64,000 bases of DNA from the IMG/VR virus record IMGVR_UViG_3300042519_001716. One strand, given 5' to 3'. Position 1 is the first letter of the stretch. Each line of letters opens with the position of its first letter. Below are positions 7,019 through 63,390 of the stretch, piece after piece. A program made the translations under genes and the position numbers. This DNA comes from a virus. Taxonomy: Duplodnaviria; Heunggongvirae; Uroviricota; Caudoviricetes. The notes below the pieces were generated by a model. It ran no database searches. It was not told where the DNA came from and saw nothing but the letters and a program-made list of their open reading frames with translations.

Positions 7019-7019
7019 G

Positions 7020-8967: not shown

Positions 8968-8979
8968 GGGACCTAATCA

Positions 8980-10055: not shown

Positions 10056-10081
10056 TAAGCTTCCTGGTATAGGTTTGTTCA

Positions 10082-10117: not shown

Positions 10118-10129
10118 TATTTATATAAC

Positions 10130-10858: not shown

Positions 10859-10866
10859 GATGCTCG

Positions 10867-13794: not shown

Positions 13795-13832
13795 AAAAAA
13801 ATCCCCGGAGTTAGTTTTCCGGGGGTTTCTTT
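13795..13832 (-). terminator. bidirectional Rho-independent terminator (CCCCGG-loop-CCGGGG flanked by A-run and T-run)
   Basis: follows stop of the 501-aa gene on the - strand. Confidence 0.6.
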
Positions 13833-15449: not shown

Positions 15450-15668
15450 TTAAAAGAATGAATCTGGATACCAATCATCTAGTTGACGTCTATTATCTGT
15501 TATCTCTATATGGGTTTTTATAACATCTTCTGTTATGTCATCCTCATTCATTACCCTTAATGCTTTACCATTGAATATAGGTGAGATCACCTTATGATAT
15601 ATTATTTCTCCTTCTGGATCAAGGATGGTTTCAATTAATACTTTGTAGTGGCCTATTATTTTCTCCAT
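15450..15668 (-). CDS. hypothetical protein
   Basis: 72 aa, 12 nt downstream of the radical SAM gene. Confidence 0.45.
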   Translation of the reverse strand: MEKIIGHYKVLIETILDPEGEIIYHKVISPIFNGKALRVMNEDDITEDVIKTHIEITDNRRQLDDWYPDSFF

Positions 15669-15679
15669 AGTAATTTTTG

Positions 15680-17818
15680 TTATATTAATTTTTTTGGTTG
15701 ATAATCAAAGTCAATTGGTTTATGGTTTTTGTTTCCCCAGTATCCATTTCCTTCCCATTGGTATTGGAAGCTAAGGTCTAGTTCTGAGTTAAGTCTTCTT
15801 TCTTCTGCCATTAACATATCAAATTCTTCATGTGATCTACCATTTTCTCCCCAGATTGGTTTTGCGTGTACTCTTGCTCGTACGGCCGCGTTTACCTTTA
15901 TATGAGAAAAATCTACGGTTTTAAATGGCGTTTGTTTTTCAATATTAGATTCCGGTTGTTTAAAATTAAAATCACATTTATATTTCCAGTTTCCATCTCT
16001 ATCTATAATAAACTTATGGTTGGCCCAGAATGGCCCCACGTTTCTTTCTCCGAATTCAACCAGATCCAATTGTTGATCAAACTTTATATCCAATGAGAAT
16101 CCACCTCTGGTTCTCCATAACATTCTGAATAGTACAAACATTTCATTTACCAGAGTATTTGCAAATGGGTGCATGTTTGGTTGTATAATCCGGTAGTCAA
16201 ACTGCTCGTATTCAATTTCATTTAATGTGGATCGATCAAAAATGTTTAATACATAGTGATCTCTTATTAGGTTTGGTCTATGTGGAACATGTACATGATT
16301 AATGGTTACTAAGTTTTGTAAGAATATGGCAAATGATTTGATTCTACATAGCACGTGTATCTTTGTTAACCTAAAGTCTTTGGTCATCCATTGATCCATG
16401 AAGAAGTGTGGTGATACCCCATATCTATCAGGATTTTGACCAACCACCGTATTCATCCCCATACCGAATCCAAATCCCGCAGCTATTGTTAATATGTTTT
16501 GATTTCTATTTCTCCATATGAATGTTAGCGTGTCCGAGAAGTCTTGGTAGTCTTCAGTTGGGAATCCAACAATCCAATTGGTAAACGCGCTTATACCGAC
16601 AATCCTTCCAGATTCCATGTTCTGTTCCATCTCCAGTATGGTTACGCCCTTGGCCATATCATTCAATACTTTCTGGCTTCCCGATTCAATTCCATAGTTA
16701 AGTGCCTCACAACCAGAACCCCTTAGATCCCAATAGAAATCCAGATCCATTCTTCCATCACATCTACAATACCCGGTCCAATGTAATTTTATATCCTTTG
16801 CGATGATGGCCTTGCAGAACGCCCTTAGTTCAGAAAGATTTCCATTTACCAAGCTATCAATAAACCATACAACATCCGTACCTTTGCTATAATATAAATG
16901 TTCAATCTCCGCTAGTGCATCTGTGGCCATCCTTTGTCTATACTTCCAGAAGTGTGTCTCCTCACAGAATGTACATTTGGCAACACAACCTCTGCTGAAC
17001 TCGGTATTGATTCCATTTGGATAAACATATTCATTAAAATCAAAATCGCTGTAGTCAGGTAGCGGAAGATTATTTAAATCCAACCTTTGCTTTTCTGGTT
17101 GTGATAGTATTTGAATTTCATTATGCACAACACCATTCTCCACCTCATCTAATATCTGTAACAATATGGCTTCGCCCTCACCAATGACAGAGTAATCAAT
17201 TAAACCTTTTGGATAGTCATCTTTAAATTGATGTATTCTTAATACCGCATTGGGACCGCCGATAGCGATCTTAATGTTTGGCATAAGTCTTTTTAATTCG
17301 GTGGCCACCCATTTAACTGGCTCCTCATTGCAATAGTACATGGTAAACCCAACCACATCCGGCTTCCAATCAACAATCTGTTGGATATACTGTCGAAGCA
17401 CCGGCTCAATATGCGGATGCAACTCCGTATAATATGTTTTCTCTAACCATTTCCATTCCTTTGCCCCATCCCATGGATCAAAATCAATCTTATTTTCTCT
17501 AATTAATTCTCTAAAAACATTATGTATCTTTATATTTAAATCCAAGCATTTGGTTTCATATCCGGAATGCTTTGCAACGGAAGCCAATCTCGCCGTGTTG
17601 AATGGTGGGAAATTTGGGGACCACTCCGGTAATAACATTAAAAACAATCTTGTTTTCTTTGTTGCTGGAATGATATCAATGGTGGTTAGATTACCTTGCA
17701 CCTTGTTCTTTGCAAAGGGAGCAATCGCTTCCATCATCGCCACATGTTTGTCCTCCGAATCTGGGGTTTTTATTCTTGGCTTGGCCTCGTCTTTTTTGAA
17801 ATTATATAAATCGCTCAT
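15680..17818 (-). CDS. B12-binding-domain radical SAM enzyme with ~300-aa C-terminal extension of unknown function
   Basis: Rossmann-like B12-binding region (VVGFTMYY..IKIAIGGPNA) followed by CVAKCTFCEE (CxxxCxxC) radical SAM motif; 712 aa. Confidence 0.75.
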   Translation of the reverse strand: MSDLYNFKKDEAKPRIKTPDSEDKHVAMMEAIAPFAKNKVQGNLTTIDIIPATKKTRLFLMLLPEWSPNFPPFNTARLASVAKHSGYETKCLDLNIKIHNVFRELIRENKIDFDPWDGAKEWKWLEKTYYTELHPHIEPVLRQYIQQIVDWKPDVVGFTMYYCNEEPVKWVATELKRLMPNIKIAIGGPNAVLRIHQFKDDYPKGLIDYSVIGEGEAILLQILDEVENGVVHNEIQILSQPEKQRLDLNNLPLPDYSDFDFNEYVYPNGINTEFSRGCVAKCTFCEETHFWKYRQRMATDALAEIEHLYYSKGTDVVWFIDSLVNGNLSELRAFCKAIIAKDIKLHWTGYCRCDGRMDLDFYWDLRGSGCEALNYGIESGSQKVLNDMAKGVTILEMEQNMESGRIVGISAFTNWIVGFPTEDYQDFSDTLTFIWRNRNQNILTIAAGFGFGMGMNTVVGQNPDRYGVSPHFFMDQWMTKDFRLTKIHVLCRIKSFAIFLQNLVTINHVHVPHRPNLIRDHYVLNIFDRSTLNEIEYEQFDYRIIQPNMHPFANTLVNEMFVLFRMLWRTRGGFSLDIKFDQQLDLVEFGERNVGPFWANHKFIIDRDGNWKYKCDFNFKQPESNIEKQTPFKTVDFSHIKVNAAVRARVHAKPIWGENGRSHEEFDMLMAEERRLNSELDLSFQYQWEGNGYWGNKNHKPIDFDYQPKKLI

Positions 17819-18526: not shown

Positions 18527-18742
18527 TTATTTTATTTTTACGTTTCCGGTTATAGGGTCAATTGAAATTCTATCATTATCTTTAAAGTGATTTGCTATGT
18601 CTTGATACTTTGGGTCCGCGACCACCGATACCGTTAAACCAATGCACACATCTTTTTTATATAATGGTTCTAGTTTATAACTTCGTATCTTTATTTTGAG
18701 TTCGTCTTCCAACATCTCCTTATCTATTATTATCTTAAGCAT
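18527..18742 (-). CDS. hypothetical protein
   Basis: ORF track, 71 aa. Confidence 0.4.
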   Translation of the reverse strand: MLKIIIDKEMLEDELKIKIRSYKLEPLYKKDVCIGLTVSVVADPKYQDIANHFKDNDRISIDPITGNVKIK

Positions 18743-19899
18743 TATATTAAGTTTGTTGGTTGTAGTTGGCTTTCAATATTGTAAAGATAATTTAAAAATG
18801 TTTTATTTAAAATATCTTTTCGATATTCTTTGTTAAAATATAAATCCTGATTGAACTTACATATGTCTAAAACCTCTTTGCTATTATATACATTGGACAA
18901 CTCAACAGCGCTATCTATAATGTGTTTTATTTTATGATCACCATCCATTTCATCATAGTCTTCGTTAATAACCGAATTAAATGTTTTGAATCCCATATCC
19001 CTCAATGTTTTAAGGTGGCCCCTTGATGCAGAAACAACAAATGGTACACCCAAGTATATTGCCTTCCAGGTTTTTTCGGTTATATGGATTTCTAATTGGT
19101 TAAAGTTTGTTTCAGTAATAATATTAACCTTACTTTTATAATACCAATTAGGGTTTACTGTATAAAGATATTCCTCGCGCTTAGATAATTCACTACCATA
19201 CATTACATCATCTTCCAATTGAATTGATTTAAAATTGTCCGAATCTATTCCTAAGTGATCGGTTAATTTTTTATTTAATAGGTTTTTTTTATGTTTATTA
19301 TCCACCCAACTAAGTCTTGTGTCATTTAGTAATTCCCTATCAAATAGTTCTTCAATTATTTTATATTTGTGATAATACATTCTTCTATTTAAACACAAAA
19401 ATTTTTTATCTGGTGTTATGTGATTATGTTTAACAACATAATTTATAAGATGATTATAAGTTGATAGAAAGAAATTAGGAAAGAAAATGGTGTTTAATAT
19501 AAAATTTTCATATTTTACTTTATGTATACCAAGATTATTTGAATTATTAATTGCAACAAATAAACGATTTATATTAATACTATTTGATTTTAATTTATTT
19601 AAAAAATTTAAACTTAATTCATCCGGTCTACTATGTGATTCACCTGAAAAGTCTGATATAAAATAAAAATTCTCTGTTTGTAATCTAATCAGTAATTCTA
19701 TAAATTCAATGGAATGTGTATGTGTGCTATTGGGAAATGACCATCTTACTTCCCATTTGAAAACTAAAAAGTTTAATTTGGTTTGGTCAATAGGGTTGGT
19801 ATCAATATTTTTAAATAGAATTGTGCAATCTATTTTTTCAATAGACTCTCTAATGCGTGTATTAGGCGATATATTGGTATACCAGAAATCTATTCCCAT
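18742..19899 (-). CDS. hypothetical 385-aa protein, possibly glycosyltransferase-like
   Basis: C-terminal EKTWKAIYLGVPFVV segment resembles GT-B sugar transferase motifs; weak. Confidence 0.3.
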   Translation of the reverse strand: MGIDFWYTNISPNTRIRESIEKIDCTILFKNIDTNPIDQTKLNFLVFKWEVRWSFPNSTHTHSIEFIELLIRLQTENFYFISDFSGESHSRPDELSLNFLNKLKSNSININRLFVAINNSNNLGIHKVKYENFILNTIFFPNFFLSTYNHLINYVVKHNHITPDKKFLCLNRRMYYHKYKIIEELFDRELLNDTRLSWVDNKHKKNLLNKKLTDHLGIDSDNFKSIQLEDDVMYGSELSKREEYLYTVNPNWYYKSKVNIITETNFNQLEIHITEKTWKAIYLGVPFVVSASRGHLKTLRDMGFKTFNSVINEDYDEMDGDHKIKHIIDSAVELSNVYNSKEVLDICKFNQDLYFNKEYRKDILNKTFLNYLYNIESQLQPTNLI

Positions 19900-21995: not shown

Positions 21996-22703
21996 TTAAT
22001 CCCAATATTTGTGTGATTGCCTAAAAAATTCAGGATTGTTTCTATTGATATATGCTTTAACCATAATGTTAAACATCCAAAAAATACCTTTTGATTTAAA
22101 TCTTCTTGGTGATGTATATATGCCGGATAAATTTAAAATTTTAAATTCTTTGACATTCACTTTCTTTGATAAAGAATAATCCTCTGCAAATAATTCCAGG
22201 GGATTATAACCACCAACTTTCCAATAAGATCGTGTGTTCCAAAGTTGAAATCCACCTATAGCAAATGGTGTTCCGGCTAGTATCGATAACCTTTGAAATA
22301 TATCAAAAACCCTAAATACCCATCTATATGGGTAATCTGTATAAAATGGTACTGTTATTAAATCTTTATGGTGTTTTAAACACTCTTCTAACATAATTGG
22401 ATTTGTTAAAAACACATCAGCATCCAGAAATAACATATAGGGTGTATTAACCAATATACTACCATTAAATCTCGCTTCTGATGGGTAACCACCCTTAATC
22501 ACCTCAATGTCTAATAGATGGCTAAAATCTCTTATTAAGTCCCTTATATGAAATAAAGAATCATATGTATCAGACACATCAGATATTATTATCCTTGTGC
22601 CATTAATATTGGTTTGTTTAGAGATATTATATACACAATCATATAATGTCCTTGACTCATTCTTGGACGGAATAACAATTGTTAAATTATTTTTTATATT
22701 CAT
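21996..22703 (-). CDS. family 2 glycosyltransferase
   Basis: LTIVIPSKNES N-terminal GT-A signature and LFLDADVFL DxD motif. Confidence 0.6.
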   Translation of the reverse strand: MNIKNNLTIVIPSKNESRTLYDCVYNISKQTNINGTRIIISDVSDTYDSLFHIRDLIRDFSHLLDIEVIKGGYPSEARFNGSILVNTPYMLFLDADVFLTNPIMLEECLKHHKDLITVPFYTDYPYRWVFRVFDIFQRLSILAGTPFAIGGFQLWNTRSYWKVGGYNPLELFAEDYSLSKKVNVKEFKILNLSGIYTSPRRFKSKGIFWMFNIMVKAYINRNNPEFFRQSHKYWD

Positions 22704-40594: not shown

Positions 40595-40904
40595 TTCTTC
40601 TTTTAGTTAGTAACCTAAATGTATTAAAAATACCTAACAACATAAAGAGTTGTACTGGCCAAAATGGAAAATTTTGTAGCTCATGTAACATCCAAAATAT
40701 ATTCATGAAGACCCATGAAAATAATGTAATGTTAGTGTCTCTATTATGTTTTTCCTTTATTAGGAGATATATTGTAAGAAGTGATGTCGGGAACACCATT
40801 AAAGTTGCTAACCACGTAAACTTCAGACACCAAAATATGTCCTTTAATAACCACGAAGTTACATGGATTTCTTGTATATCAAAATAAAAATTACGAATTC
40901 TCAT
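40569..40904 (-). CDS. membrane protein
   Basis: three hydrophobic helices. Confidence 0.4.
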   Translation of the reverse strand: MRIRNFYFDIQEIHVTSWLLKDIFWCLKFTWLATLMVFPTSLLTIYLLIKEKHNRDTNITLFSWVFMNIFWMLHELQNFPFWPVQLFMLLGIFNTFRLLTKRRNEKKNNIH

Positions 40905-41316
40905 CTATGTACTGAAGTTGTGGTGTCCACACACCTTCTGATACAATTGTTGGGTTATTGTTTCTGTCGATCATAACCCACTCAACCTTAACAATACCCC
41001 ATGGTTCAAATTGTTCTAACACATCTTGTAGAGTAAATGATTTGCAGCTATAGATATCGAACTGAGCCATCGCGGGCTCATGATGATCCCATATGTGTAT
41101 TGACGCGTGTGATGTGGCTAATGTAACAGTTCCAGTTAATCCCTCATTACCAGGAAAGTCTACATAAACACTGGTTGGGCCAGCAACAACTTCCATTTTA
41201 ACTTTATGAACTAATTGGATAAACCAATCATTTAAAACGCTAACCTTTTTTGGTGGGTTATTAAGCCAAACCTTCATTAAAAGGTGTTGGTGATAAGGTA
41301 CAAATTCTTCCTGCAT
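40891..41316 (-). CDS. speD: S-adenosylmethionine decarboxylase-like protein (SpeD/SpeH class)
   Basis: LATSHASIHIWDHHE resembles the pyruvoyl AdoMetDC ESHISIHTWPE processing/active site. Confidence 0.55.
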   Translation of the reverse strand: MQEEFVPYHQHLLMKVWLNNPPKKVSVLNDWFIQLVHKVKMEVVAGPTSVYVDFPGNEGLTGTVTLATSHASIHIWDHHEPAMAQFDIYSCKSFTLQDVLEQFEPWGIVKVEWVMIDRNNNPTIVSEGVWTPQLQYIDENS

Positions 41317-42099: not shown

Positions 42100-42429
42100 T
42101 TATAGAGAAAAACTTTCTCCACATCCACATGTGCGTGATGCGTTGGGGTTTACCCAATGAAACCCCTTTCCATTTAGACCGTCGGAAAATTGTAATTCCG
42201 TTCCGTATAAATAAAGAACAGATTTTTTATCAATTATAACACTCAGCGGCCCAAGATCAACAACCTCATCCATATCCGTAACCTGGGTATCAAAATCCAT
42301 AACATATGAAAGACCACTACATCCACCACCCTTAACACCAACCCTTAGTTTATGTGTATCTGGTGCTATCTGTTGTGAAGCCATTAACGTTACTAGATGA
42401 TTTAATGCGTTGTCACTTATTGTTATCAT
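42100..42429 (-). CDS. iscA: A-type iron-sulfur cluster carrier (IscA/SufA/HesB family)
   Basis: LRVGVKGGGCSGLSY and C-terminal CGCGESF conserved cysteines. Confidence 0.8.
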   Translation of the reverse strand: MITISDNALNHLVTLMASQQIAPDTHKLRVGVKGGGCSGLSYVMDFDTQVTDMDEVVDLGPLSVIIDKKSVLYLYGTELQFSDGLNGKGFHWVNPNASRTCGCGESFSL

Positions 42430-42641
42430 TATTTAATGCCAGATTTATTTAATAAACTATCTGTAGTTTTTTTATCTATTTTAATTTCACTATTGGTCTG
42501 AGTCTCTTTTCTTAATCTTGTTAACTCTTTTTGTTGGAAGTAACATATCAATAGCAAAGCCACAGCCCCACCCATTGTTATATTCTTTTGATTCTTTTTT
42601 AAAAATTCTATCATAATTAATTTATATGTGTGTTTCTTCAA
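42429..42641 (-). CDS. hypothetical small protein between iscA and iscU
   Basis: 70 aa; overlaps neighbours by 1 and 20 nt. Confidence 0.4.
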   Translation of the reverse strand: MKKHTYKLIMIEFLKKNQKNITMGGAVALLLICYFQQKELTRLRKETQTNSEIKIDKKTTDSLLNKSGIK

Positions 42642-43032
42642 AGGTAATTTCTTCTAACCCCTGTTTTTTTCTGTAATCATTTATTGCAGATTTTATTGCA
42701 TCTTCCGCTAAAACTGAACAATGTATTTTAACTGGAGGTAAACTTAACTCCTCAACTAAATCCATATTATCAATTGTAATCGCCTCATCTAACGATTTAC
42801 CTTTTAACCATTCTGTGGCAACCGAAGATGATGCTATTGCTGATCCACAACCAAATGTTTTAAACTTAGCATCAATAATTATATTATCCACCACCTCAAT
42901 TTGTAACCTCATTACATCTCCACATTCTGGGGCACCAACTAAGCCGGTACCAACATTTGATTTAGTTTTATCTAATGTTCCAATGTTTTTAGGGTTTTCG
43001 TAATGATCTATTACTTTTTGTGAATATGACAT
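42622..43032 (-). CDS. iscU: Fe-S cluster scaffold IscU/NifU
   Basis: GAPECGDVMRLQI, FGCGSAIASSS and PPVKIHCSVLAEDAI signature blocks. Confidence 0.85.
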   Translation of the reverse strand: MSYSQKVIDHYENPKNIGTLDKTKSNVGTGLVGAPECGDVMRLQIEVVDNIIIDAKFKTFGCGSAIASSSVATEWLKGKSLDEAITIDNMDLVEELSLPPVKIHCSVLAEDAIKSAINDYRKKQGLEEITFEETHI

Positions 43033-52450: not shown

Positions 52451-53806
52451 ATGAAAAAAAAGATTTTATTATTATCTGATGATTTAAGAATGACATCTGG
52501 AATCGCAACTATGTCAAAGGAAATTGTTATGGGAACAATTGATAAGTATGATTGGATACAACTAGGCGCAGCAATATCACATCCAGAGATTGGAAAAATT
52601 GTTGATGTTAATGATGATATCAGAAAGAGAACAGGTGTTGAAGACGCTAATCTTAAGATAATTCCATACAATGGTTATGGTGATATTAACATCCTTAGAA
52701 AGTTAATAAATGAAGAAAAGCCAGATGCTATCTTACACTTCACCGATCCGCATTATTGGCAATGGTTATATGATAATGAACATGAGATCAGACAACACAC
52801 ACCAATATTATATTATCACATATGGGATGATTTACCAGACCCACAATACAATAGAGATGTTTTTGAATCTTGTGATTGGTTAGGTTGTATATCTAAACAA
52901 ACATATGGAATTGTACATCGTGTTGGTAAGAGAACTGATAAAGTAACATTCAAACCATTGGAAGATTGGCAGATAAGTTATGTTCCACATGGTATCAATC
53001 CAGAAACATTTAAACCACTGGATAAAGTTTCAGATGAAATAAAAAATATTATCTTTGGTGATAAGAAGTATGATTTTGTTTTATTTTTTAACAGTAGAAA
53101 CATTAGAAGGAAACAACCAAGTGATGTTATCTATTCATTTAAATTGTTTTGTGATCAACTACCAAAAGAAAAAGCAGATAAGTGTTTATTATTAATGCAC
53201 ACAGCCGCTGTTGATGAGAACGGAACAGACTTACCAGCAGTTATCGAAGCTCTTTGTCCATATGATGTTAAGTTCACAGGATTAAAGTTAGAACAAGATA
53301 AGTTAAATGAAATATATAACCTAGTTGATTGTACTATCAACATCGCTAACAATGAAGGGTTTGGTTTAACAACAGCAGAATCATTGATGGCTGGTACACC
53401 AATTATTGTTAATGTGACTGGTGGCTTACAAGATCAATGTGGATTTGAATATAGTGCAGATGATTATATTTCAGTTGGAACGTTACATAATAAAAAAGTA
53501 CACAGCTCAATATCACATGGCGAATGGGTAGAACCGATTTGGTCATCAGCTATAAATTTAAATGGATCTGTACCAACCCCATACATTTTTGATGACAGGG
53601 TAAACGATGATGATGTTGCAAATGTTATCATGAAGATGTATAAGATAGGTAAGAAAAAAAGAAAAGCAAGAGGTTTGCTAGGTAGAGAGTTTATGATTAA
53701 CAATCTATCAAATAAAATAATGTGTGATAAAATGTCTGAAGGGATTGAGCAAGCAATCAGTAACTTCAAGCCGAGAAAGAAATTTGATTTATATAAAATT
53801 ATATGA
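52451..53806 (+). CDS. GT4-family (GT-B) glycosyltransferase
   Basis: NEGFGLTTAESLMAGTPIIVNVTGG matches the retaining GT4 E-x7-E/donor-binding signature. Confidence 0.6.
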   Translation: MKKKILLLSDDLRMTSGIATMSKEIVMGTIDKYDWIQLGAAISHPEIGKIVDVNDDIRKRTGVEDANLKIIPYNGYGDINILRKLINEEKPDAILHFTDPHYWQWLYDNEHEIRQHTPILYYHIWDDLPDPQYNRDVFESCDWLGCISKQTYGIVHRVGKRTDKVTFKPLEDWQISYVPHGINPETFKPLDKVSDEIKNIIFGDKKYDFVLFFNSRNIRRKQPSDVIYSFKLFCDQLPKEKADKCLLLMHTAAVDENGTDLPAVIEALCPYDVKFTGLKLEQDKLNEIYNLVDCTINIANNEGFGLTTAESLMAGTPIIVNVTGGLQDQCGFEYSADDYISVGTLHNKKVHSSISHGEWVEPIWSSAINLNGSVPTPYIFDDRVNDDDVANVIMKMYKIGKKKRKARGLLGREFMINNLSNKIMCDKMSEGIEQAISNFKPRKKFDLYKII

Positions 53807-55056
53807 GAAAACCATTTTTATTATTTAGAGGGCCAGTAAAAACAAGAAGTGGATATGGTGCACACTCAAGAGATTTGCTAGAAGCGTTACATAAGATGGA
53901 TATGTTTGATATTAAAATAGATAGCTGTTCATGGGGATCAACACCGTTAACCGCGTTGGAGGATGATAACATGTTTCATAAATGGATTGATTCAAATATT
54001 GTAACCAATATAAATGTTCAGCCAGATTTTTATGTGCAAGTGACAGTACCTAACGAATTTCAAACATTAGGTAAAATAAACATAGGAGTAACCGCCGGTA
54101 TTGAAACAACTGTAGCGCCAAAGAATTGGATAGACGGTTGTAACAAGATGGATATGGTTATAACAACATCTGAATTTTCAAAGGATGTTTTATTGTCAAC
54201 TGTTTATAATGAAAATGATAATGTTACTGGTAAACTAATAAAACAATATAGAATTGAAAAACCATTGTTAGTATTGTTTGAGGGTGTTGACACATCTATA
54301 TACAATAACGAGTATACTGGAATCGACCTAGACATAAAAGAAGATTTTGCTTATCTGTTTGTTGGTCATTGGTTGAAAGGAGATACTGGTCAAGACAGAA
54401 AAGATGTGGGGATGTTGATTAGATGTTTTACAGAAGCATTTAAAGATCAAGAAGATCAACCAGCACTTGTTTTAAAGACATCTGCGGCCTCTTTCTCTAT
54501 TAAACAAAGGGAAGAGTTCAGAAAGAAAATTGAAGGCCTTGTTGGTCAAATTGATAACCCACCTTCGATATACCTTTTGTTCGGTGATTTAAGTAACAAA
54601 GAGATGAACGAGCTTTATAATCATCCAAAAATAAAAGCTATGGTTACTCTCACCAAGGGTGAGGGATTTGGTAGACCTCTACTAGAATTTACAATGACAG
54701 GTAAACCCGTTATTGCATCTAATTGGTCTGGGCATAAAGATTTTTTACCAATGGATAAAGCTATTATGATTGGTGGTAAACTTACGGATGTAGATCAAAG
54801 TGCTATTGACGATTTTATTATTAAAGGGTCTAAATGGTTCACAGCAAATTATAATGAAGTTGCAGAGGTTTTAAAATTGGTTAAAATAGATTATGAAAAG
54901 TTTTTATCTAAATCAGAAACATTAAGAATTGAAAACAAAGAAAAGTTTTCTATGGAAAAAATGATGGAAAAGTTTAGATCGTTTATCCCAGATGAGGCCA
55001 AAGAAGAACCAATACAAAAGCAATTAAATTTACCTAAATTAAATAAAATAAAGTAG
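53803..55056 (+). CDS. GT-B glycosyltransferase (GT4-like)
   Basis: TKGEGFGRPLLEFTMTGKPVIASNWSG; ATGA overlap with upstream GT. Confidence 0.5.
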   Translation: MRKPFLLFRGPVKTRSGYGAHSRDLLEALHKMDMFDIKIDSCSWGSTPLTALEDDNMFHKWIDSNIVTNINVQPDFYVQVTVPNEFQTLGKINIGVTAGIETTVAPKNWIDGCNKMDMVITTSEFSKDVLLSTVYNENDNVTGKLIKQYRIEKPLLVLFEGVDTSIYNNEYTGIDLDIKEDFAYLFVGHWLKGDTGQDRKDVGMLIRCFTEAFKDQEDQPALVLKTSAASFSIKQREEFRKKIEGLVGQIDNPPSIYLLFGDLSNKEMNELYNHPKIKAMVTLTKGEGFGRPLLEFTMTGKPVIASNWSGHKDFLPMDKAIMIGGKLTDVDQSAIDDFIIKGSKWFTANYNEVAEVLKLVKIDYEKFLSKSETLRIENKEKFSMEKMMEKFRSFIPDEAKEEPIQKQLNLPKLNKIK

Positions 55057-55057
55057 T

Positions 55058-55336
55058 ATGCCAAAAAGGAAAAGAGAATCAATATTTTTAACTACACCTA
55101 CCCCGCAATCATCTTCTTTCACAATTGCTGACGCAAAGTATATTGATACATGTGAATGGTGTTTTCAATTCGATGATGACCAACCGATAGTATTTGCAAA
55201 AGGGTCAAAAAAAGAGTTTGCATCTGAACCTAAAATAAGTTTTACCTTAACAAATAGAACAGATAGTACCATGACTTTTTTTGATGATAAAACAAAAAAG
55301 AAATTAAAGATCTTCACAAGAGAAAAGGCCATTTAA
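55058..55336 (+). CDS. hypothetical protein
   Basis: ORF track, 92 aa. Confidence 0.4.
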   Translation: MPKRKRESIFLTTPTPQSSSFTIADAKYIDTCEWCFQFDDDQPIVFAKGSKKEFASEPKISFTLTNRTDSTMTFFDDKTKKKLKIFTREKAI

Positions 55337-55337
55337 T

Positions 55338-56183
55338 ATGAAAATTTTAGTAACAGGCGGGGCTGGGTTTATTGGTACTAATTTAATTAAAAGATTGGTA
55401 TCTGAGAAACATGATGTTGTTTCACTGGACAATTATGATAGTGGGTCGGTGTCTAACCATATTGATGGGTGTAACTATCATAGTGGCGATATTGAAAGTA
55501 TATCACTTATGGATAAAGATTTTGATTTAATTTATCATTTGGCTGCGCTTAGTAGAATACAACCATCATTTGAAAATCCATCAGAGTTCTTTAGAGTAAA
55601 TGTAATTGGTACTGAGGCTGTATGTGAGTGGGCTAGAAAATTGAATATAAGAGTTGTATACAGTGGGTCATCTTCAAGATGGCACGACCCGTTTCAATCA
55701 CCTTATGCTATGTATAAGAAGTTAGGTGAGGATGTGTGTAAGATGTATAAGAAAGTATTTGGTAGTAAAATTGAAATTACTCGCTTCTACAATGTTTATG
55801 GGCCCAATGAAATAACTGAAGGCAAATGGGCAGCAGTCATTGGTTTATGGAGAGGTCAGGTTAAAAAAAATCACCCTATTACAATTGTGGGTGATGGTAA
55901 ACAACGTAGAGATTTTACACACGTTGATGATATTGTTGATGGGTTAATTAGGATAGGTTTTTCAAATGAAGAACATGAGGATGCGTGGGAATTGGGTACT
56001 GGTTTTAATTATTCCTTAAATGAAGTGGCCTATATGTTTGAACAAAGGTTTAATGCAGTAAAAGTATATATGGCTGAGCAAAAAGGGAATTATAGAGAGA
56101 CTAAACGTGAAAACAACGACGCGTTAAATAGACTAGGATGGTCACCTAAAGACAGACTTAAAAATTATATAGATACTTTATGA
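55338..56183 (+). CDS. NAD-dependent sugar epimerase/dehydratase (extended SDR)
   Basis: MKILVTGGAGFIGTNL Rossmann motif and YAMYKK catalytic YxxxK. Confidence 0.75.
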   Translation: MKILVTGGAGFIGTNLIKRLVSEKHDVVSLDNYDSGSVSNHIDGCNYHSGDIESISLMDKDFDLIYHLAALSRIQPSFENPSEFFRVNVIGTEAVCEWARKLNIRVVYSGSSSRWHDPFQSPYAMYKKLGEDVCKMYKKVFGSKIEITRFYNVYGPNEITEGKWAAVIGLWRGQVKKNHPITIVGDGKQRRDFTHVDDIVDGLIRIGFSNEEHEDAWELGTGFNYSLNEVAYMFEQRFNAVKVYMAEQKGNYRETKRENNDALNRLGWSPKDRLKNYIDTL

Positions 56184-56800
56184 AAATAAGCTTCGCCATT
56201 ACAGTATGTAATGAACTAGAGGAGATAAAAAGATTAGTTCCATTTATACTTGAGCACAAAGGAATTCAGGATGAAATTGTTATTTTATTTGACGATAAAA
56301 ATGGTAACAAAGAGGTACTAGATTTTCTTTTACCTTTTAATATTAAACCCAACGTACAAGTATGGAGAGGTTTAGATTGGGATAACAACTTTGCCGATTG
56401 GAAGAATAAGTTAAACGAGTATTGTACAGGAGATTATATATTTCAGTTAGATGCTGATGAAATGGTTACTGAGTTTTTAATTAAAAATGTAAGTCAAGTA
56501 ATTCAAGAAAATAATGAGGTTGATCTTTTTTATCTAGCAAGGGTTAATACTGTTGATGGTATAACCATGGAACATATTAATAAGTGGAGATGGAATTTGG
56601 ATAAAGAAGGTAGAATTAATTTTCCAGATTATCAAGGTAGGATCTATAAGTCTAATCTTAAATGGGAGGGTAAAGTTCATGAAAAAATAACAGGAGTCAA
56701 ATATTATGCAGTACTACCGTTAGAGGAAGAATATTGTTTGATACATCATAAATCAATTAATAAACAAGAGAGTCAAAACAATTATTATAACACAATTTAA
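56180..56800 (+). CDS. family 2 glycosyltransferase-like protein
   Basis: ISFAITVCNE N-terminus and FQLDADE DxD motif. Confidence 0.5.
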   Translation: MKISFAITVCNELEEIKRLVPFILEHKGIQDEIVILFDDKNGNKEVLDFLLPFNIKPNVQVWRGLDWDNNFADWKNKLNEYCTGDYIFQLDADEMVTEFLIKNVSQVIQENNEVDLFYLARVNTVDGITMEHINKWRWNLDKEGRINFPDYQGRIYKSNLKWEGKVHEKITGVKYYAVLPLEEEYCLIHHKSINKQESQNNYYNTI

Positions 56801-56804
56801 TCAA

Positions 56805-57350
56805 ATGGAAGTATTGGAAAATATCTACAATAAAAGATGTGAAATACCATCAGACATTAATGAACATTTACCAACATTAAAAAAATATGCTGAAGAGTGT
56901 GATCATATAACCGAAATGGGGGTTAGATGGGTAGTGTCTACTTTCGCGTTTATGATGGGTAAACCTAAAAAATTAATATCAATCGATATTAACCCAGTTG
57001 AAAAACATGGTATCCAAACAATAGATTTAATATCATTAGCTAAAACCGCTGGTGTTGAATTTGAATTTGTTTTAGGTGACACAACAGAAATAGAAATTGA
57101 AGAAACAGATTTTTTATTTATAGATACCCTACACACATATACTCAACTAAAAAAAGAGTTAGCTTTGCATCCAAGTAAAGTTAAAAAATACATTGGCTTT
57201 CATGATACCACAACATTTGCTCAAGTGGGTGAATATAAAGAAGTGGGGTTGTGGCCAGCAATAGAGGAGTTTCTAAGTAGTAATCCTGAATGGGTTATTG
57301 CTGAAAAATTTGAAAACAATAATGGTTTAACAATTTTAAAAAAAATATAA
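56805..57350 (+). CDS. class I SAM-dependent methyltransferase-like (Methyltransf_24-type)
   Basis: ITEMGVRWVVST and FLFIDTLHTY blocks resemble O-methyltransferase family 24. Confidence 0.4.
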   Translation: MEVLENIYNKRCEIPSDINEHLPTLKKYAEECDHITEMGVRWVVSTFAFMMGKPKKLISIDINPVEKHGIQTIDLISLAKTAGVEFEFVLGDTTEIEIEETDFLFIDTLHTYTQLKKELALHPSKVKKYIGFHDTTTFAQVGEYKEVGLWPAIEEFLSSNPEWVIAEKFENNNGLTILKKI

Positions 57351-58106
57351 ATGAACAAACTAATATTAGCAACCGGTAGCAATCTAAACTACCTACACAA
57401 GATGACAGGTTATTTGAAGTCTATTGAAGAGAACTCGAATTTCGATTCAAATTATTTAATCTTCTTAGGTGATGATGAAATGAAGATGAAGTATCAAAAA
57501 ATAACAATAGCAAATGTTTATGAAAAAGATTTGGAAGTTGTACCATCAAACTATTGTATACAACATGGTGAGTTTTTAAAGTCAAAGTTATTCAATGAAT
57601 CAACAAATGATGATGATGTTATTTTCTTTACTGATGGCGACATTAAAATACAAAGACCTTTGAGTGAGGATGAAATAAAACAATTTAAAAACTTTAAAGA
57701 TGATGATGTATATGTGGGTTATAACGAATCACCAACAGACACTTTATATAACGAATCTTTAAGGTTAGGTATAATCAATAGTGAATCAGATTTATTAAAG
57801 TATGATCTAAAGAAGATTAAGGTTTATAATACCGGTGTACTAGCAATGAATAAGAAAACATGGTTAAAATTAATGAATCAATTCATTGAGTTGTATCCGT
57901 TAGTTAATAATACTTTTCACCACTATGCTAAACAACAATGGTTATTATCGCTATTGATAAACACCAAGGGCTACAATGTTTATGAGATGCCGTATGATAT
58001 TCATAATCATCTACATTACCCTAGCCCCGCTGGCACACAACGAGATAATAACGGAACAGTATATTATAATAATAAAAAGGTTTTATTTAAACACAAATGG
58101 GATTAA
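57351..58106 (+). CDS. putative nucleotide-diphospho-sugar transferase
   Basis: LILATGSNLNY N-terminus and FFTDGDIKI DxD-like motif; weak. Confidence 0.3.
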   Translation: MNKLILATGSNLNYLHKMTGYLKSIEENSNFDSNYLIFLGDDEMKMKYQKITIANVYEKDLEVVPSNYCIQHGEFLKSKLFNESTNDDDVIFFTDGDIKIQRPLSEDEIKQFKNFKDDDVYVGYNESPTDTLYNESLRLGIINSESDLLKYDLKKIKVYNTGVLAMNKKTWLKLMNQFIELYPLVNNTFHHYAKQQWLLSLLINTKGYNVYEMPYDIHNHLHYPSPAGTQRDNNGTVYYNNKKVLFKHKWD

Positions 58107-58107
58107 A

Positions 58108-58764
58108 ATGGAAAAAGAAATTAAATTAATTAGGTCATTAGAAATTGACAAAATAACTGAAAAAGAATTAGAGGACTTCTTACCTAAATTAGGAATGAAT
58201 GATGAGTGCCTAAGGGAAATGCCTGAAGAGTTATCAGAATACTATGGTAAAGGTCTTAAGTTTTGGCAATATCCAAATCAATTTAGTAAGTATCTTAAAC
58301 AACTTTCTAAATATGAAATTAACTCTTACTTAGAAATTGGTTGTAGATGGGGTGGAACATTCATTATCACAAATGAAATATTAAAATTAAAAAATCAAGA
58401 TGTTAAATCATATGCATGTGATTTGATACCGATATGTGGTGTGCTAACTGAATATAAAAATTATTCTGACTTCACATATGTTCACGAATCAAGTTTTGGT
58501 TTAACTAAGAGTCACGTGGGTGATCAGATTGATTTGATTTTAATCGACGCCGAACATTCATACGATGCAGTTAAAAAAGACTTAGAGGTTGCTAAACAAT
58601 TCAATCCAAAGTATGTTGTATTCCATGACATAACTAACGATGTGTGTAGGGGCGTAAATCAATTTTGGGAAGAAATAAAAAACGACTATAAACATCATGA
58701 GTTCATTGAACAATATGATAGTGTTGTTGGTACATACTTAGGAATCGGATTAATCGAATTATAA
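58108..58764 (+). CDS. class I SAM-dependent methyltransferase (Methyltransf_24-like); start moved to ATG after upstream stop
   Basis: YLEIGCRWGGTF and LILIDAEHSYDAVKKDLE blocks; track ORF starts inside upstream gene. Confidence 0.5.
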   Translation: MEKEIKLIRSLEIDKITEKELEDFLPKLGMNDECLREMPEELSEYYGKGLKFWQYPNQFSKYLKQLSKYEINSYLEIGCRWGGTFIITNEILKLKNQDVKSYACDLIPICGVLTEYKNYSDFTYVHESSFGLTKSHVGDQIDLILIDAEHSYDAVKKDLEVAKQFNPKYVVFHDITNDVCRGVNQFWEEIKNDYKHHEFIEQYDSVVGTYLGIGLIEL

Positions 58765-58765
58765 T

Positions 58766-59851
58766 ATGTATGATTATTTAATTGTTGGGGCGGGATTTTA
58801 CGGATCTATATGTGCGCATGAGTTAACCAAAGCTGGTAAAAAGGTTTTAGTTATTGACAATAGAGAACATATAGGTGGTAACTGTTACACAAAAAATAGA
58901 GACGGAATTAATGTACACGAATATGGTGCACATATATTTCATACATCAAATGAAGAAGTATGGAAATGGATTAATCAATTTGTGACGTTTAACAATTATG
59001 TTAATTCACCTGTTGCATATTATCGTGGTAAATTATATTCTTTACCGTTTAATATGTGGACATTCAATCAACTGTGGGGAATTACAACACCTGATGAAGC
59101 TAAACAAAAAATAGAAGAGCAATCTGGTGGTATTAGTGAGCCTAAAAACTTAGAAGAACAAGCGATTAAGTTAGTGGGTAAAGATGTTTATGAAAAATTA
59201 ATTAAGGGGTATACAGAAAAGCAATGGAGAAAGCCATGTGATCAACTACCTAAGGAAATTATTAAACGATTACCAGTTAGATTTACATATAACAACAACT
59301 ACTTTAATGACAAATATCAAGGTATTCCTATTGGTGGTTACACACAGGTGTTTGAAAAACTATTAGATGGTGTTGATGTTAAATTAAATTGTGATTATTT
59401 CAAGGATGAATTACCAGAACATGATAAGGTTATATATACCGGGCCAATTGATATGTTCTTTGATTACAAATATGGTGAACTAGAATATAAAACAACAAAA
59501 TTCGACCATATTCATTTTACTGATAAATCAAACTATCAAGGTAATGCTGTTGTTAATTTTACCGATAAAGAAATACCATATATAAGAATAATAGAACATA
59601 AACACTTTGAATTTGCTGACACACCAACGACCTGGATTACAATTGAATATCCAACAGAATATAAGGCCGGTGTAACTGAACCTTATTATCCGGTAAATGA
59701 TGTTGAGAATAATAAAAAATATCAGCAATATAAATTAGAATCAGATAAGTTTGAAAATATACATTTTGGTGGTAGATTAGCAGAATACAAATACTATGAT
59801 ATGCATCAGGTAATTGAGTCGGCATTAAATTATATAAAAAAAGAGATATGA
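58766..59851 (+). CDS. glf: UDP-galactopyranose mutase
   Basis: YDYLIVGAGFYGSICAHEL..KKVLVIDNREHIGGNCYT FAD-binding N-terminus characteristic of Glf; 361 aa. Confidence 0.8.
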   Translation: MYDYLIVGAGFYGSICAHELTKAGKKVLVIDNREHIGGNCYTKNRDGINVHEYGAHIFHTSNEEVWKWINQFVTFNNYVNSPVAYYRGKLYSLPFNMWTFNQLWGITTPDEAKQKIEEQSGGISEPKNLEEQAIKLVGKDVYEKLIKGYTEKQWRKPCDQLPKEIIKRLPVRFTYNNNYFNDKYQGIPIGGYTQVFEKLLDGVDVKLNCDYFKDELPEHDKVIYTGPIDMFFDYKYGELEYKTTKFDHIHFTDKSNYQGNAVVNFTDKEIPYIRIIEHKHFEFADTPTTWITIEYPTEYKAGVTEPYYPVNDVENNKKYQQYKLESDKFENIHFGGRLAEYKYYDMHQVIESALNYIKKEI

Positions 59852-60954
59852 ATATAACATTTGTTTTAGCCGTTTATAATAAATTAGATTTAACAAAGGA
59901 ATGTTATAAACGTCTTCGTGATGTTTACCCAACAGCACCTTTAGTGATTAGTAGTGGTGGGTCAAGTGATGGAACAAAAGAATGGTTGGCGTCATTAGAA
60001 GATGATAATTTATCTTATCTACATGATGATGAAAGGTTAACATTCTCTGACACATATAACACCGGAATTAAATTAGTTGATACCGAGAAACTCGTTTTAA
60101 TACATAACGATATGGTTATTGGTGAAGGATTCCTAGAAGCCATAGAAAGATTATTAGAACCAAATATGTTGTTGTCATATACAACTATTGAACCACCAAT
60201 ATTCAGAGGTCACCAGAGACCAGGTAAAGTATTATTGGATCTTGGTAGTGGGTTTGATAATTTTGACGATTTTAATTTTAATAGCTATGTTAAACAATGG
60301 AATCAAAACGATAAATTATATGATGGCGCGGTATTTTTTATGTCTGGATATAAAAAGATGTTTGAAGATGTTGGTTTCTTTGATGGTTTTAGTTTTTTTC
60401 CGTGCTTCTGTGAAGATGATGATTTTTTAATCAGAGCAAAATTAAAAGGTTATAACTTAAAGACTTGTGAATCAGCCATAACATATCATTTTGTTTCTCA
60501 AACATCTAGATTCGGTGATGATTTCAAAAAAGATAGAGGATTGTATGAGGTTTGTTCAATTAGAAACTTTGTTAGAAAATGGGGAATACCATACACAGCG
60601 TTTAATGAAATGAGATATTGGGAGGAAAAGGATTTTAAATACAAAACCTTTAATATGGGGTTAACAACCAGGAGCAGATCTTATTTAATGAGATTGGAAC
60701 CATTCTTCGATAAAATCAATTTAGGAGCCATTCCTGAGGACTATATAGAGAATGAACAGAAGAATACCAAATATGATTTAAGATCAAAATTTACCCTTAC
60801 AGAAGACGTTGATGTGATGATTTATGAAACTAACCCATTTGATGAAGAGGATCTAGAAACACTTAAGAAATTAAGGCTCTCAATTCCTTATTATGAACCA
60901 GGGGAATACCAAATAGGTAATATGTTGATAGAAATAAAAAAGGAGCTTAATTAG
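59848..60954 (+). CDS. family 2 glycosyltransferase
   Basis: ITFVLAVYNK N-terminus typical of GT-A; ATGA overlap with glf. Confidence 0.5.
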   Translation: MNITFVLAVYNKLDLTKECYKRLRDVYPTAPLVISSGGSSDGTKEWLASLEDDNLSYLHDDERLTFSDTYNTGIKLVDTEKLVLIHNDMVIGEGFLEAIERLLEPNMLLSYTTIEPPIFRGHQRPGKVLLDLGSGFDNFDDFNFNSYVKQWNQNDKLYDGAVFFMSGYKKMFEDVGFFDGFSFFPCFCEDDDFLIRAKLKGYNLKTCESAITYHFVSQTSRFGDDFKKDRGLYEVCSIRNFVRKWGIPYTAFNEMRYWEEKDFKYKTFNMGLTTRSRSYLMRLEPFFDKINLGAIPEDYIENEQKNTKYDLRSKFTLTEDVDVMIYETNPFDEEDLETLKKLRLSIPYYEPGEYQIGNMLIEIKKELN

Positions 60955-63358: not shown

Positions 63359-63390
63359 TTTGTTTTTGTTTAAGAAAAGTTTATAAAATT

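Follow-up and report, generated by a model that had tools for sequence, protein, structure and literature searches.

Cobalamin-dependent radical SAM enzymes catalyse alkylations that are among the hardest in biology, and few of them have been characterised. The subgroup comprises roughly 7,000-10,000 members, which share one scaffold but employ at least three mechanisms, and in each of the solved enzymes the barrel is followed by a C-terminal domain particular to that enzyme (PMC8992657). Among these enzymes, TsrM (tryptophan 2-C-methyltransferase, PDB 6WTE/6WTF) was the best structural match of the phage protein described here, yet identity between the two is no higher than 17-18%. TsrM methylates by a non-radical mechanism and ends in a mostly helical domain (PMC8992657), whereas the C-terminal domain of the phage protein is alpha/beta and unrelated, and the TsrM NCBIfam model was not among the matches of the phage protein. 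TokK, CysS and the KedN5-type enzymes, whose substrates are carrier-bound precursors of antibiotics from actinomycete and myxobacterial clusters, are 13-17% identical to it and differ in their C-terminal domains, with the KedN5 model scoring only 15.7 bits. The B12-binding radical SAM protein of Streptomyces phage SF3 (NC_028952) is 25.6% identical over residues 145-447, that is, in the common core only; it has no counterpart of the C-terminal domain and falls into another subfamily. As for the genomic setting, in large T4-like marine phages hypervariable regions harbour ‘radical SAM cassettes’ along with glycosyltransferases and UDP-glucose dehydrogenase, and as many as 12 radical SAM genes accompany viral IscU/IscA-type genes (PMC7029224; PMC5332604). 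This is the same type of setting as that of the present family, but both papers call the genes ‘radical SAM proteins’ only and leave the B12-domain family, its C-terminal domain and its partner families undefined.

The gene under study lies on a 64,000-nt stretch of DNA, which was analysed over its whole length and is referred to as the window. That the window comes from a phage is supported by matches of its genes to PHROG families, and several homing endonucleases, ArdC, PcfJ and an M23 lysin-like protein are present, while no capsid or terminase gene was found inside the 64,000 nt. An identical radical SAM gene was found on metagenomic contigs of 51-110 kb. The GC content of the gene (0.378, z = 0.93) is no outlier and thus gives no sign of recent transfer. 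The gene and the parts of its product are as follows.

15680..17818, minus strand: cobalamin-domain radical SAM gene, 712 aa, stop included, ATG start
17654..17818, minus strand: N-terminal extension, residues 1-55, kept across the family (alignment and model)
17114..17650, minus strand: Rossmann-type cobalamin-binding domain, residues ~57-235
16508..17026, minus strand: radical SAM partial TIM-barrel core, residues ~265-437 (PF04055 and model)
16964..16987, minus strand: [4Fe-4S] cluster motif C278-VAK-C282-TF-C285, read from the sequence
15683..16507, minus strand: family-specific C-terminal alpha/beta domain, residues 438-712

The initial annotation had described a B12-binding segment followed by a radical SAM core, an architecture that was upheld both by profile and by fold. 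PF02310 (B12-binding) matched residues 142-221 with 38.8 bits against a gathering cut-off of 32.1, PF04055 (Radical_SAM) matched residues 273-434 with 46.3 bits against a cut-off of 29.5, and the Pfam search of the 712-aa protein returned nothing beyond these two families. The AF2 model was confident (pLDDT 87) and showed strand/helix alternation in the core, its predicted barrel superposed on TsrM, TokK and OxsB, and the family profile aligned with the Cbl-binding segments of TokK and CysS. By direct reading, CVAKCTFC occupies residues 278-285, and its CxxxCxxC would bind the SAM-cleaving [4Fe-4S] cluster. In a conservation alignment of 58 homologs with 51-78% identity, C278, C282 and C285 were all invariant, as were G187-G188 (GG) and G213-E214-G215-E216 (GEGE) of the B12 domain, and YGIESGS (G376, E378, S381) and IVGFPTE (G418, P420, E422) of the core. 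From knowledge of the superfamily we take the latter two to be the SAM-binding motifs of the core, of the GxES (ribose) and GxIxGxxxE types. Residues 276-293 formed a low-pLDDT loop in the AF2 model, as would be expected, in our interpretation, where a cluster-binding loop is modelled with the cluster missing. In the N-terminal extension, H25 and M28 were invariant in the homolog alignment and A31-P34, K37 and Q41 nearly so, and residues 21-35 were modelled as a helix. Hence the features of class B radical SAM enzymes, namely a Rossmann-type B12-binding domain, a CxxxCxxC inside a TIM-barrel core and the SAM motifs, were all found. As the B12 domain and the barrel core were both recovered, neither a missing B12-binding fold nor a cluster motif outside the barrel, the two findings that the initial annotation had said would refute it, was observed. 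The gene product is apparently an intact predicted enzyme of the cobalamin-binding-domain radical SAM group.

When the protein was compared with the models of radical SAM subfamilies, as the initial annotation had advised, the Pfam domains were confirmed and no curated subfamily fitted. The best NCBIfam match was that to the PhpK-family P-methyltransferases (TIGR04479); its 113 bits, scored over residues 150-436, fell far below the cut-off of 600, and membership was rejected. Only the common core aligned, and no phosphonate genes lie nearby. No YgiQ/UPF0313 model was among the 24 NCBIfam families matched at E<=0.1. On some homologs, the JGI labels read ‘anaerobic magnesium-protoporphyrin IX monomethyl ester cyclase’ (BchE) or ‘YgiQ’, and weak NCBIfam matches pointed to BchE, HpnJ, HpnR and a ladderane-lipid enzyme, from which the gene might be read as a host-metabolism auxiliary gene of a named family (BchE, YgiQ or a hopanoid/lipid methylase). 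We consider this highly improbable: the scores were 95.5 bits against a cut-off of 481 for BchE (TIGR02026), 52 against 650 for HpnR and 58 against 578 for HpnJ, no tetrapyrrole or hopanoid genes were found near the radical SAM gene in any context examined, and the C-terminal domain is absent from the BchE, HpnR and HpnJ families. Judged by these profile scores, the JGI labels BchE and YgiQ fail, which corrects automatic annotations that are spreading through metagenome databases. Since no curated subfamily model was matched, the chemistry cannot be transferred from known enzymes, and by its sequence the phage protein is a new variant within the known B12-type radical SAM enzymes that belongs to no curated subfamily.

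The C-terminal ~275 aa (residues 438-712) had no Pfam match and no PDB sequence match even at E<=10, and structure comparison of the model found no known fold relative. The region is therefore uncharacterised, as initially annotated, but it is not an orphan extension, being conserved within the family, restricted to it and family-defining. It may act as a substrate-binding lid over the barrel.

A further question is whether the B12-like fold binds cobalamin at all. AprD4, the radical SAM 1,2-diol dehydratase of apramycin biosynthesis, is not known to use cobalamin. With AprD4 (PDB 6FD2) the phage protein shares a real fold similarity, though AprD4 has 454 aa and lacks the C-terminal domain, and by analogy the phage protein could be a cobalamin-independent radical enzyme with a degenerate B12-like fold that dehydrates, epimerises or rearranges a sugar. 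Enzymes on the same scaffold do use several mechanisms (PMC8992657), and no gene for taking up or making cobalamin could be seen in the window, nor did the window give any Rfam match at all, whether to a cobalamin or to a SAM riboswitch. Nevertheless, we regard this alternative as unlikely, given that PF02310 scored above its cut-off, that GG and GEGE, which are common to the Cbl-binding TokK and CysS, are kept in the phage protein and invariant in the family, and that the best structural match is a true cobalamin enzyme. Moreover, the AprD4-family diol dehydratase model (NF033070) was not among the matches of the window protein at E<=0.1; it matched weakly with a second paralog in locus L170.

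The initial annotation had called this class rare in phages, which held for GenBank and not for uncultured viruses. The family was absent from 50,697 GenBank phage records, where weak similarity of the N-terminal half was found in two distinct phages only (three records), namely SF3 and an unannotated gut ‘Bacteriophage sp.’ record. In IMG/VR, relatives are encoded on at least 245 uncultured viral contigs, and the best 80 of these 245 aligned over nearly the full length with 49-68% identity. Full-length homologs numbered 120 among the 2,790 protein-database matches listed. Among the genomes of 185,579 species, the family was found on three MAG contigs only, whose full-length homologs stand in the same operon type as the viral loci, with flanking genes that gave no decisive phage or cell signal. 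The nearest cellular relative, a 460-aa protein of Halobacteriovorax, matches from residue 57 onward only, and its gene has housekeeping genes as neighbours. The family is thus large, unnamed and almost confined to viral contigs; no cultured relatives of the phage were found, and a literature search found no paper characterising this B12-domain radical SAM family. A subfamily that is nearly virus-only and whose own substrate domain resembles nothing recognisable points to chemistry not seen before.

The conserved neighbours in related phages, which the initial annotation had proposed as a check, were surveyed in windows of ±10 kb around the radical SAM gene. Across the 83 loci counted, members of an unannotated family, GT-like385, were present in 63, UDPG-DH-like genes in 45, carbamoyltransferases in 29, DegT aminotransferases in 26 and NAD epimerases in 24. 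GT-like385 is the most frequent neighbour; its homologs outside the window amounted to 141 matches in 62 loci, with 1-4 copies per locus. The median gap at the radical SAM gene was 9 nt upstream and −4 nt downstream. GT-like385 was the immediate upstream neighbour in 27/80 loci, and either GT-like385 or UDPG-DH-like in 36/80, while c6, DegT, c12 and carbamoyltransferase genes were found downstream. In L005 and L170, the start and stop codons of the radical SAM gene and a UDPG-DH fusion gene overlap. Most lineages possess a tight operon with up to six further radical SAM genes (seven in total), 3-4 of them encoding twitch-domain proteins, together with UDPG-DH-like, DegT aminotransferase, NAD epimerase/dehydratase and TobZ/NodU-type carbamoyltransferase genes and several GT-like385 members. 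GT-like385 itself had no Pfam match and no PDB match beyond weak, spurious-looking ones in a PDB profile search (E about 0.005, sphingomyelinase). Its TETNF...TEK motif may resemble that of the GT10 fucosyltransferases (FENS...YxTEK), a likeness that the Pfam and PDB searches did not bear out. Some of its members carry a fused domain of UDP-glucose dehydrogenase or NAD epimerase/dehydratase type, and these fusions are the only support for its putative sugar-nucleotide role. A c3 module was tried as a GT-A glycosyltransferase and rejected, as its DGD-like motif is not invariant and the module has no PDB match.

Among the targets initially proposed (nucleic acid, lipid or glycan), glycan is best supported by these conserved gene neighbourhoods. 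The reading that we favour, though tentatively, is a radical tailoring, probably methylcobalamin-dependent, in which the enzyme would act on a sugar, nucleotide-sugar or glycan produced by phage-encoded enzymes. The likeliest step would be methylcobalamin-dependent methylation of an unactivated carbon, a chemistry favoured because the second B12-type radical SAM paralog of the operons is most similar to the KedN5-family methylcobalamin C-methyltransferases. The pathway may end in a glycan of the virion or of the host surface. More doubtful is the wider proposal of an undescribed, essentially virus-exclusive biosynthetic system, in which sugar-nucleotide, aminotransferase and carbamoyltransferase enzymes, joined by as many as seven radical SAM enzymes (a pair of them of B12 type), would make an unusual, heavily C-alkylated glycan or small molecule, and the C-terminal domain would be a new fold dedicated to this substrate. 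If this were true, infection would depend on host cobalamin and replication would be tied to B12 availability. The family raises the questions of which glycan or metabolite abundant uncultured phages make, whether the product serves virion decoration, host-surface remodelling or defence evasion, and whether the phage enzyme ties infection to a vitamin that the host may import.

In the window, the surroundings of the gene are reduced in comparison with these operons, and contain the following features.

18742..19899, minus strand: GT-like385 family member, 385 aa, unannotated, 0.9 kb upstream of the radical SAM gene
15450..15668, minus strand: 72-aa ORF, 11 nt downstream of the radical SAM stop codon
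13849..15354, minus strand: 501-aa protein, phrog_2319 (PHROG E 1.4e-31)
13803..13824, minus strand: terminator-like hairpin, 7-pair stem (6 G-C), then a T run
52451..60954, plus strand: glycan block, 8.5 kb (Pfam matches)

The 501-aa protein shares ~26% identity with hypothetical proteins from phages of Vibrio and Aeromonas and has no homolog in the other radical SAM loci; its gene is probably co-transcribed with the radical SAM gene. The hairpin right after it, a match to the consensus only, probably ends the transcription unit. A promoter scan gave fewer sites than in shuffled sequence.

The 72-aa ORF was present where initially annotated, with a spacing of 11 nt rather than 12, and gene calling recovered it on four contigs belonging to this phage. 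It had no Pfam, NCBIfam or PHROG match and no homolog in 170+ other loci, including relatives whose radical SAM proteins are 78% and 68% identical, and was therefore rejected as a conserved partner or precursor peptide. Its position directly downstream bears on the possibility of a peptide or protein maturase, in which the enzyme would C-methylate or otherwise change a ribosomal peptide or virion protein, the substrate being the product of the 72-aa ORF or the giant proteins of 1000-2400 aa that close many operons. An abundance of twitch/SPASM radical SAM enzymes is typical of operons for peptide (RiPP) maturation as well, and the 3-4 twitch-domain genes of the phage operons belong to the SPASM/twitch group, which includes peptide maturases. 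RiPP enzymes were likewise among the NCBIfam matches, but with scores far under their cut-offs (97 bits vs 750 for ApyD NF050148; 93.4 vs 281.85 for TIGR03975, rSAM_ocin_1), on which the RiPP C-methyltransferases were rejected. Given also that the 72-aa sequence contains no Cys and is unique to this phage, that no small ORF is conserved beside the gene in other lineages, and that the partner genes encode sugar-nucleotide enzymes and not peptidases or transporters, a maturase seems improbable.

With regard to the favoured tailoring of a sugar or glycan, this phage would hold a reduced version, using the 385-aa protein encoded 0.9 kb upstream together with the other glycosyltransferases of the genome. 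These include a GT2 gene at 21996..22703 and the block at 52451..60954, which encodes two GT4, an NAD epimerase/dehydratase, two GT2, a UDP-galactopyranose mutase and two Methyltransf_24/CmcI-like methyltransferases. The predicted gene content of the block shows glycan synthesis or remodelling by the phage, and its tie to the radical SAM gene is co-residence in the genome. In the lineage of the window itself (L168, L169, L025, L008/L009) the radical SAM gene does not adjoin sugar genes, and L177 and L178 carry window-type GT-like385 orthologs with no B12-type radical SAM gene within 10 kb, so that the linkage between GT-like385 and the radical SAM gene in this phage could be coincidence. A pattern scan, run to see whether contigs of the window lineage have GT-like385 elsewhere, found six close relatives only, none on the contigs with the radical SAM gene.

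In the closest relatives, DNA methyltransferases, NT5C and HAD_SAK_2 lie near the radical SAM gene, which could indicate nucleic-acid modification, either hypermodification of phage DNA (for instance by tailoring the sugar or side chain that a modified base bears) or modification of tRNA or rRNA. Phages do glycosylate their DNA diversely via glycosyltransferases and sugar-modifying enzymes, but the preprint describing this makes no mention of radical SAM or carbamoyltransferase genes (bioRxiv 10.1101/2023.12.21.572611). The ThyA homolog of the window is a genuine, ordinary thymidylate synthase and not a hydroxymethylase, thus no hydroxymethyl-pyrimidine precursor is indicated, and no TET/5mYOX gene was seen. 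For RNA, MiaB and RimO were among the fold matches of the model; however, TIGR00089 scored 33.7 bits against a cut-off of 251, over residues 370-441 only, and no Cys N-terminal of C278 was invariant in the 58 homologs, so that the three N-terminal Cys of the methylthiotransferases are absent and MiaB/RimO membership was rejected. Taken with these points, a nucleic-acid target appears quite unlikely.

Finally, two genes for Fe-S cluster assembly were located in the window.

42622..43032, minus strand: IscU scaffold protein (NifU_N E 1.3e-49)
42100..42429, minus strand: IscA-type A-type Fe-S carrier (Fe-S_biosyn E 8.7e-16)

The presence of IscU, IscA and SpeD in the same genome, from which the initial annotation had suggested a self-sufficient pathway of radical SAM modification, was confirmed by the NifU_N, Fe-S_biosyn and AdoMet_dc matches, the last lying at 40891..41316 with 42.4 bits against a cut-off of 25. 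SpeD turns SAM into decarboxylated SAM for polyamines. Since it consumes SAM, it lends little weight to a pathway that supplies SAM. The Fe-S part of the proposal fared better: in the closest relatives IscU/IscA lie ~7 kb from the radical SAM gene (IscU in L168, IscA in L168 and L169), and viral Fe-S assembly genes of marine viral genomes have been proposed to serve virus-encoded radical SAM enzymes (PMC5332604), with which the idea agrees. IscU is a possible supplier of the [4Fe-4S] cluster, and the favoured reading would include that the phage's own IscU and IscA help to load it, by which the viral IscU/IscA genes of marine viromes would gain functional meaning. An FeS_assembly_P gene was also found inside one of the radical SAM operons.

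The gene product is apparently an intact B12-domain radical SAM (rSAM) enzyme of a virus-borne family, with the following features:

15680..17818, minus strand: 712-aa ORF with an ATG start (sequence)
Residues 142-221: PF02310, B12-binding, 38.8 bits against a cut-off of 32.1 (Pfam)
Residues 273-434: PF04055, Radical_SAM, 46.3 bits against a cut-off of 29.5 (Pfam)
Residues 278-285: CVAKCTFC motif (sequence)

The architecture proposed in the initial annotation, a B12-binding segment followed by a radical SAM domain, was thus borne out by the Pfam cut-offs, and equally by fold and invariant motifs. An AlphaFold2 model built from an alignment of 58 homologs was confident (mean pLDDT 87.0, pTM 0.85), with low confidence limited to the cluster-binding loop (276-293) and the final 16 residues, and its best Foldseek matches in the PDB were TsrM (E 1e-13), OxsB, AprD4, MiaB, TokK, MgmA and CysS. 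The family profile aligns to the cobalamin-binding segments of TokK and CysS through PDVxxxSxYxxN, GG and GEGE, and in the homolog alignment G187, G188 and G213-E216 are invariant across the family, as are the three cluster cysteines and the core motifs YGIESGS and IVGFPTE. By both profile and structure, the B12-binding fold is present and the CxxxCxxC lies inside a TIM-barrel radical SAM core. A MiaB-type auxiliary cluster is disfavoured, because the alignment contains no conserved cysteines in the N-terminal domain.

Enzymes of this kind are already well known, the cobalamin radical SAM subgroup having roughly 7,000-10,000 members (PMC8992657). What is new is a distinct subfamily without a name, near-exclusively viral in distribution. 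In NCBIfam, 24 models gave any signal and none came close to its own cut-off, including the following:

PhpK family model: 113 bits, cut-off 600
ApyD model: 97 bits, cut-off 750
BchE model: 95.5 bits, cut-off 481
RiPP C-methyltransferase model: 93 bits, cut-off 282

Membership in a named host-metabolism family such as BchE, for which these tests were negative, is therefore very improbable. As the scores are far under the cut-offs, the names given to homologs by JGI, “anaerobic Mg-protoporphyrin IX monomethyl ester cyclase” and “YgiQ”, are likewise unsupported.

Also new is a C-terminal domain specific to the family. Consistent with the earlier description of a C-terminal region lacking a recognisable family, the final ~275 residues have no Pfam match and no recognisable fold relative. 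The best 120 homologs in a collection of 5.8 billion proteins were all full length (679-758 aa, coverage 95-100%, identity 51-100%), and conservation of this region equals that of the catalytic core, with 41 invariant positions, many being Trp, Phe, Arg, Asn, Glu or Gly. When residues 445-712 were searched exhaustively on their own, 114 representative clusters were obtained, in which the domain was nearly always C-terminal in 600-750-aa proteins or in obvious fragments. C-terminal domains vary from one cobalamin radical SAM enzyme to another. Because the solved enzymes share the core and differ in this part, the domain may, by analogy, form a substrate-binding lid. The Cbl and radical SAM domains are common to the solved enzymes, and in TsrM they are followed by a mostly helical C-terminal domain (PMC8992657).

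No member of the family was found among 50,697 GenBank phage records, in which similarity was limited to Streptomyces phage SF3 and a single gut phage contig (23-26% identity, over the common core alone). In IMG/VR, relatives were present on at least 245 viral contigs reaching 518 kb. When one genome per species was searched for 185,579 bacterial and archaeal species, full-length relatives occurred on only three MAG contigs (29, 80 and 74 kb), which may be mis-binned phage DNA; two of the three carry the same multi-rSAM operon as the viral contigs. Thus, the full-length family is essentially virus-borne. Among clearly cellular proteins, the nearest relatives come from Halobacteriovorax and other Bdellovibrionota; they are 460 aa long, with ~32% identity over residues 57-481, no C-terminal domain and housekeeping genes as neighbours. 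Within the group of loci L088, L089, L091 and L092, two contigs binned as Halobacteriovorax (L088, L089) have the operon in an rSAM-only form; this coincidence with the source of the nearest cellular homologs of the core could point to a host or an origin, or else reflect a binning artefact.

To describe the genomic context, the ORFs of 83 loci (the window and 82 others) were clustered and families were counted within 10 kb of the rSAM gene.

Families recurring around the rSAM gene
GT-like385, unannotated 385-aa family: 63/83 loci, 1-4 copies per locus
N-terminal-twitch radical SAM proteins: 51/83 loci, true NF033640 members (373 bits, cut-off 170)
c3, 220-aa module: 45/83 loci, often closing 1000-2400-aa proteins
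UDP-glucose-dehydrogenase-like genes: 45/83 loci
c4, unannotated family: 44/83 loci
324-aa radical SAM protein: 40/83 loci
c6, unannotated family: 34/83 loci
TobZ/NodU-type carbamoyltransferase: 29/83 loci
DegT aminotransferase: 26/83 loci
NAD epimerase/dehydratase: 24/83 loci

In most lineages the gene is embedded in multi-rSAM operons rich in sugar-nucleotide genes, with up to seven radical SAM-superfamily genes in a single 20-kb locus. These operons are tight (median gap to the rSAM gene 9 nt on its upstream side and −4 nt on its downstream side), and the immediate upstream neighbour is a GT-like385 or UDP-glucose-dehydrogenase-like gene in 36/80 loci. Neither Pfam nor the PDB has a match for GT-like385 itself; its link to sugar nucleotides comes from some members that are fused to a UDP-glucose dehydrogenase or NAD epimerase/dehydratase domain. 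A second ORF clustering with the B12-rSAM family was found in 17 loci, and the single paralog scanned (642 aa, locus L170) most resembled the KedN5-type C-methyltransferases, with 238 bits where the cut-off is 700. Marine viral genomes have been described in which IscU/IscA-type genes accompany as many as 12 radical SAM genes (PMC5332604), and the literature treats such regions in general terms only; the recurring multi-rSAM, sugar-type operon is new. Five to seven radical SAM-superfamily genes per operon, including true NF033640 members, were counted in L010, L021, L031, L005 and L170, some of which add a second B12-rSAM-family paralog, and an FeS_assembly_P gene sits mid-operon in L170. The downstream operon end in L031, L014, L015, L085 and L005 holds giant 1000-2400-aa proteins closing in the conserved c3 module, which also occurs as stand-alone 300-600-aa proteins and has no match in Pfam, NCBIfam or PDB.

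We tentatively favour, at somewhat short of an even chance, an enzyme that uses radical chemistry to tailor a sugar, nucleotide-sugar or glycan produced by enzymes of the phage; the step would most likely be methylcobalamin-dependent C-methylation, with the substrate bound by the C-terminal domain and cluster loading aided by the phage IscU/IscA. The twitch rSAM partners and giant proteins of the operons would also suit a peptide or protein maturase, but no conserved precursor was found and the NCBIfam models remain far under cut-off, which leaves this reading unlikely. Relatives with DNA methylases and nucleotide enzymes close by could point to nucleic-acid modification; however, the ThyA homolog of the window is an ordinary thymidylate synthase and a DNA-glycan preprint reports no rSAM genes (bioRxiv 10.1101/2023.12.21.572611), and we regard this role as slightly more improbable still.

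For tailoring of a sugar or glycan, context evidence is weaker in this phage than in other lineages, its neighbourhood being a looser, reduced version of the operon:

15450..15668, minus strand: 72-aa ORF, beginning 11 nt past the rSAM stop codon
18742..19899: GT-like385 gene, upstream of the rSAM gene and separated from it by 923 nt and four small ORFs
21996..22703: GT2 gene
40891..41316, minus strand: SpeD (Pfam, above cut-off)
42100..42429, minus strand: IscA (Pfam, above cut-off)
42622..43032, minus strand: IscU (Pfam, above cut-off)
52451..60954, plus strand: glycan-type block of 8.5 kb (Pfam)

The last block contains two GT4 and two GT2 genes, an NAD epimerase/dehydratase, a UDP-galactopyranose mutase and two Methyltransf_24/CmcI-like methyltransferases, which implies that the phage makes a galactofuranose-containing, possibly O-methylated glycan. 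The 72-aa ORF reported directly downstream is present, with a gap of 11 rather than 12 nt; it is no conserved neighbour, since neither it nor the 501-aa downstream ORF has a homolog in any other fetched locus. A terminator-like hairpin directly after the 501-aa gene suggests that the rSAM, 72-aa and 501-aa genes share a transcript. IscU, IscA and SpeD were correctly recognised from the start. SpeD acts in polyamine synthesis, where it decarboxylates SAM, so by itself it is no sign of SAM supply to the enzyme.

In the closest relatives, of the same phage lineage (L168, 78% identity; L169, 68%), the rSAM gene has small unknown genes around it, Metallophos on the downstream side and IscU/IscA ~7 kb upstream. 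A run at 39708-43032 (minus strand) of the window comprises a 4HBT thioesterase, HAD_SAK_2, SpeD, a 226-aa unknown protein, IscA and IscU. Of these, HAD_SAK_2 and IscA are found again in both relatives, IscU and the thioesterase in L168 only, and no SpeD-type gene is annotated in either, so only part of this run is a conserved accessory module of the lineage. Two loci with window-type GT-like385 orthologs (L177, L178) have no B12-rSAM gene within 10 kb. On L178, which is a related contig of 320 kb, the 214-aa, GT-like385, 106-aa and 62-aa genes are retained, the last in a different position, although the rSAM gene is missing; the latter is therefore accessory in this lineage, which is probably that of a jumbo phage.

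The window looks like phage DNA, with dense, co-directional genes, PHROG families, several HNH/NUMOD4 and T5orf172 homing-endonuclease genes, ArdC, PcfJ and a 1036-aa M23/glucosaminidase protein; metagenomic contigs of 51-110 kb carry the identical rSAM gene with the same neighbours. The 64 kb include no capsid or terminase gene, and no close cultured phage was found. Four homing-endonuclease-type genes within 16 kb (11686-12225, 25428-25976, 25989-26960 and 27180-27578, all minus strand; HNH/NUMOD4, T5orf172/MUG113 and HNH_3 domains) suggest active mobile-element traffic. The thymidylate synthase (49338-50501, minus strand) is genuine, as its best PDB matches are thymidylate synthases (E 4e-76) and the PPCH motif, dUMP-type N and C-terminus are all kept; an extra ~48-aa insert (residues 238 to 285) is matched by no solved thymidylate synthase. 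Two ORFs at 29416-30033 and 34949-35605 (minus strand) both match PHROG 192, “DNA polymerase exonuclease subunit”, over overlapping profile regions (107-274 and 106-157), and represent either paralogs or one gene that has been duplicated or split. The 91-nt tRNA-Arg(CCG) called by ARAGORN at 63391-63481 (minus strand), overlapping the 3′ end of ORF 62474..63475, is doubtful, since Rfam at gathering score found no tRNA or other RNA family in the whole window. The gene block at 2700-10900 (plus strand), mostly of unknown genes with one matching phrog_1617, has a G+C of 0.39-0.475, clearly above the window mean of 0.34, and coincides with a GC-skew switch near 10 kb.
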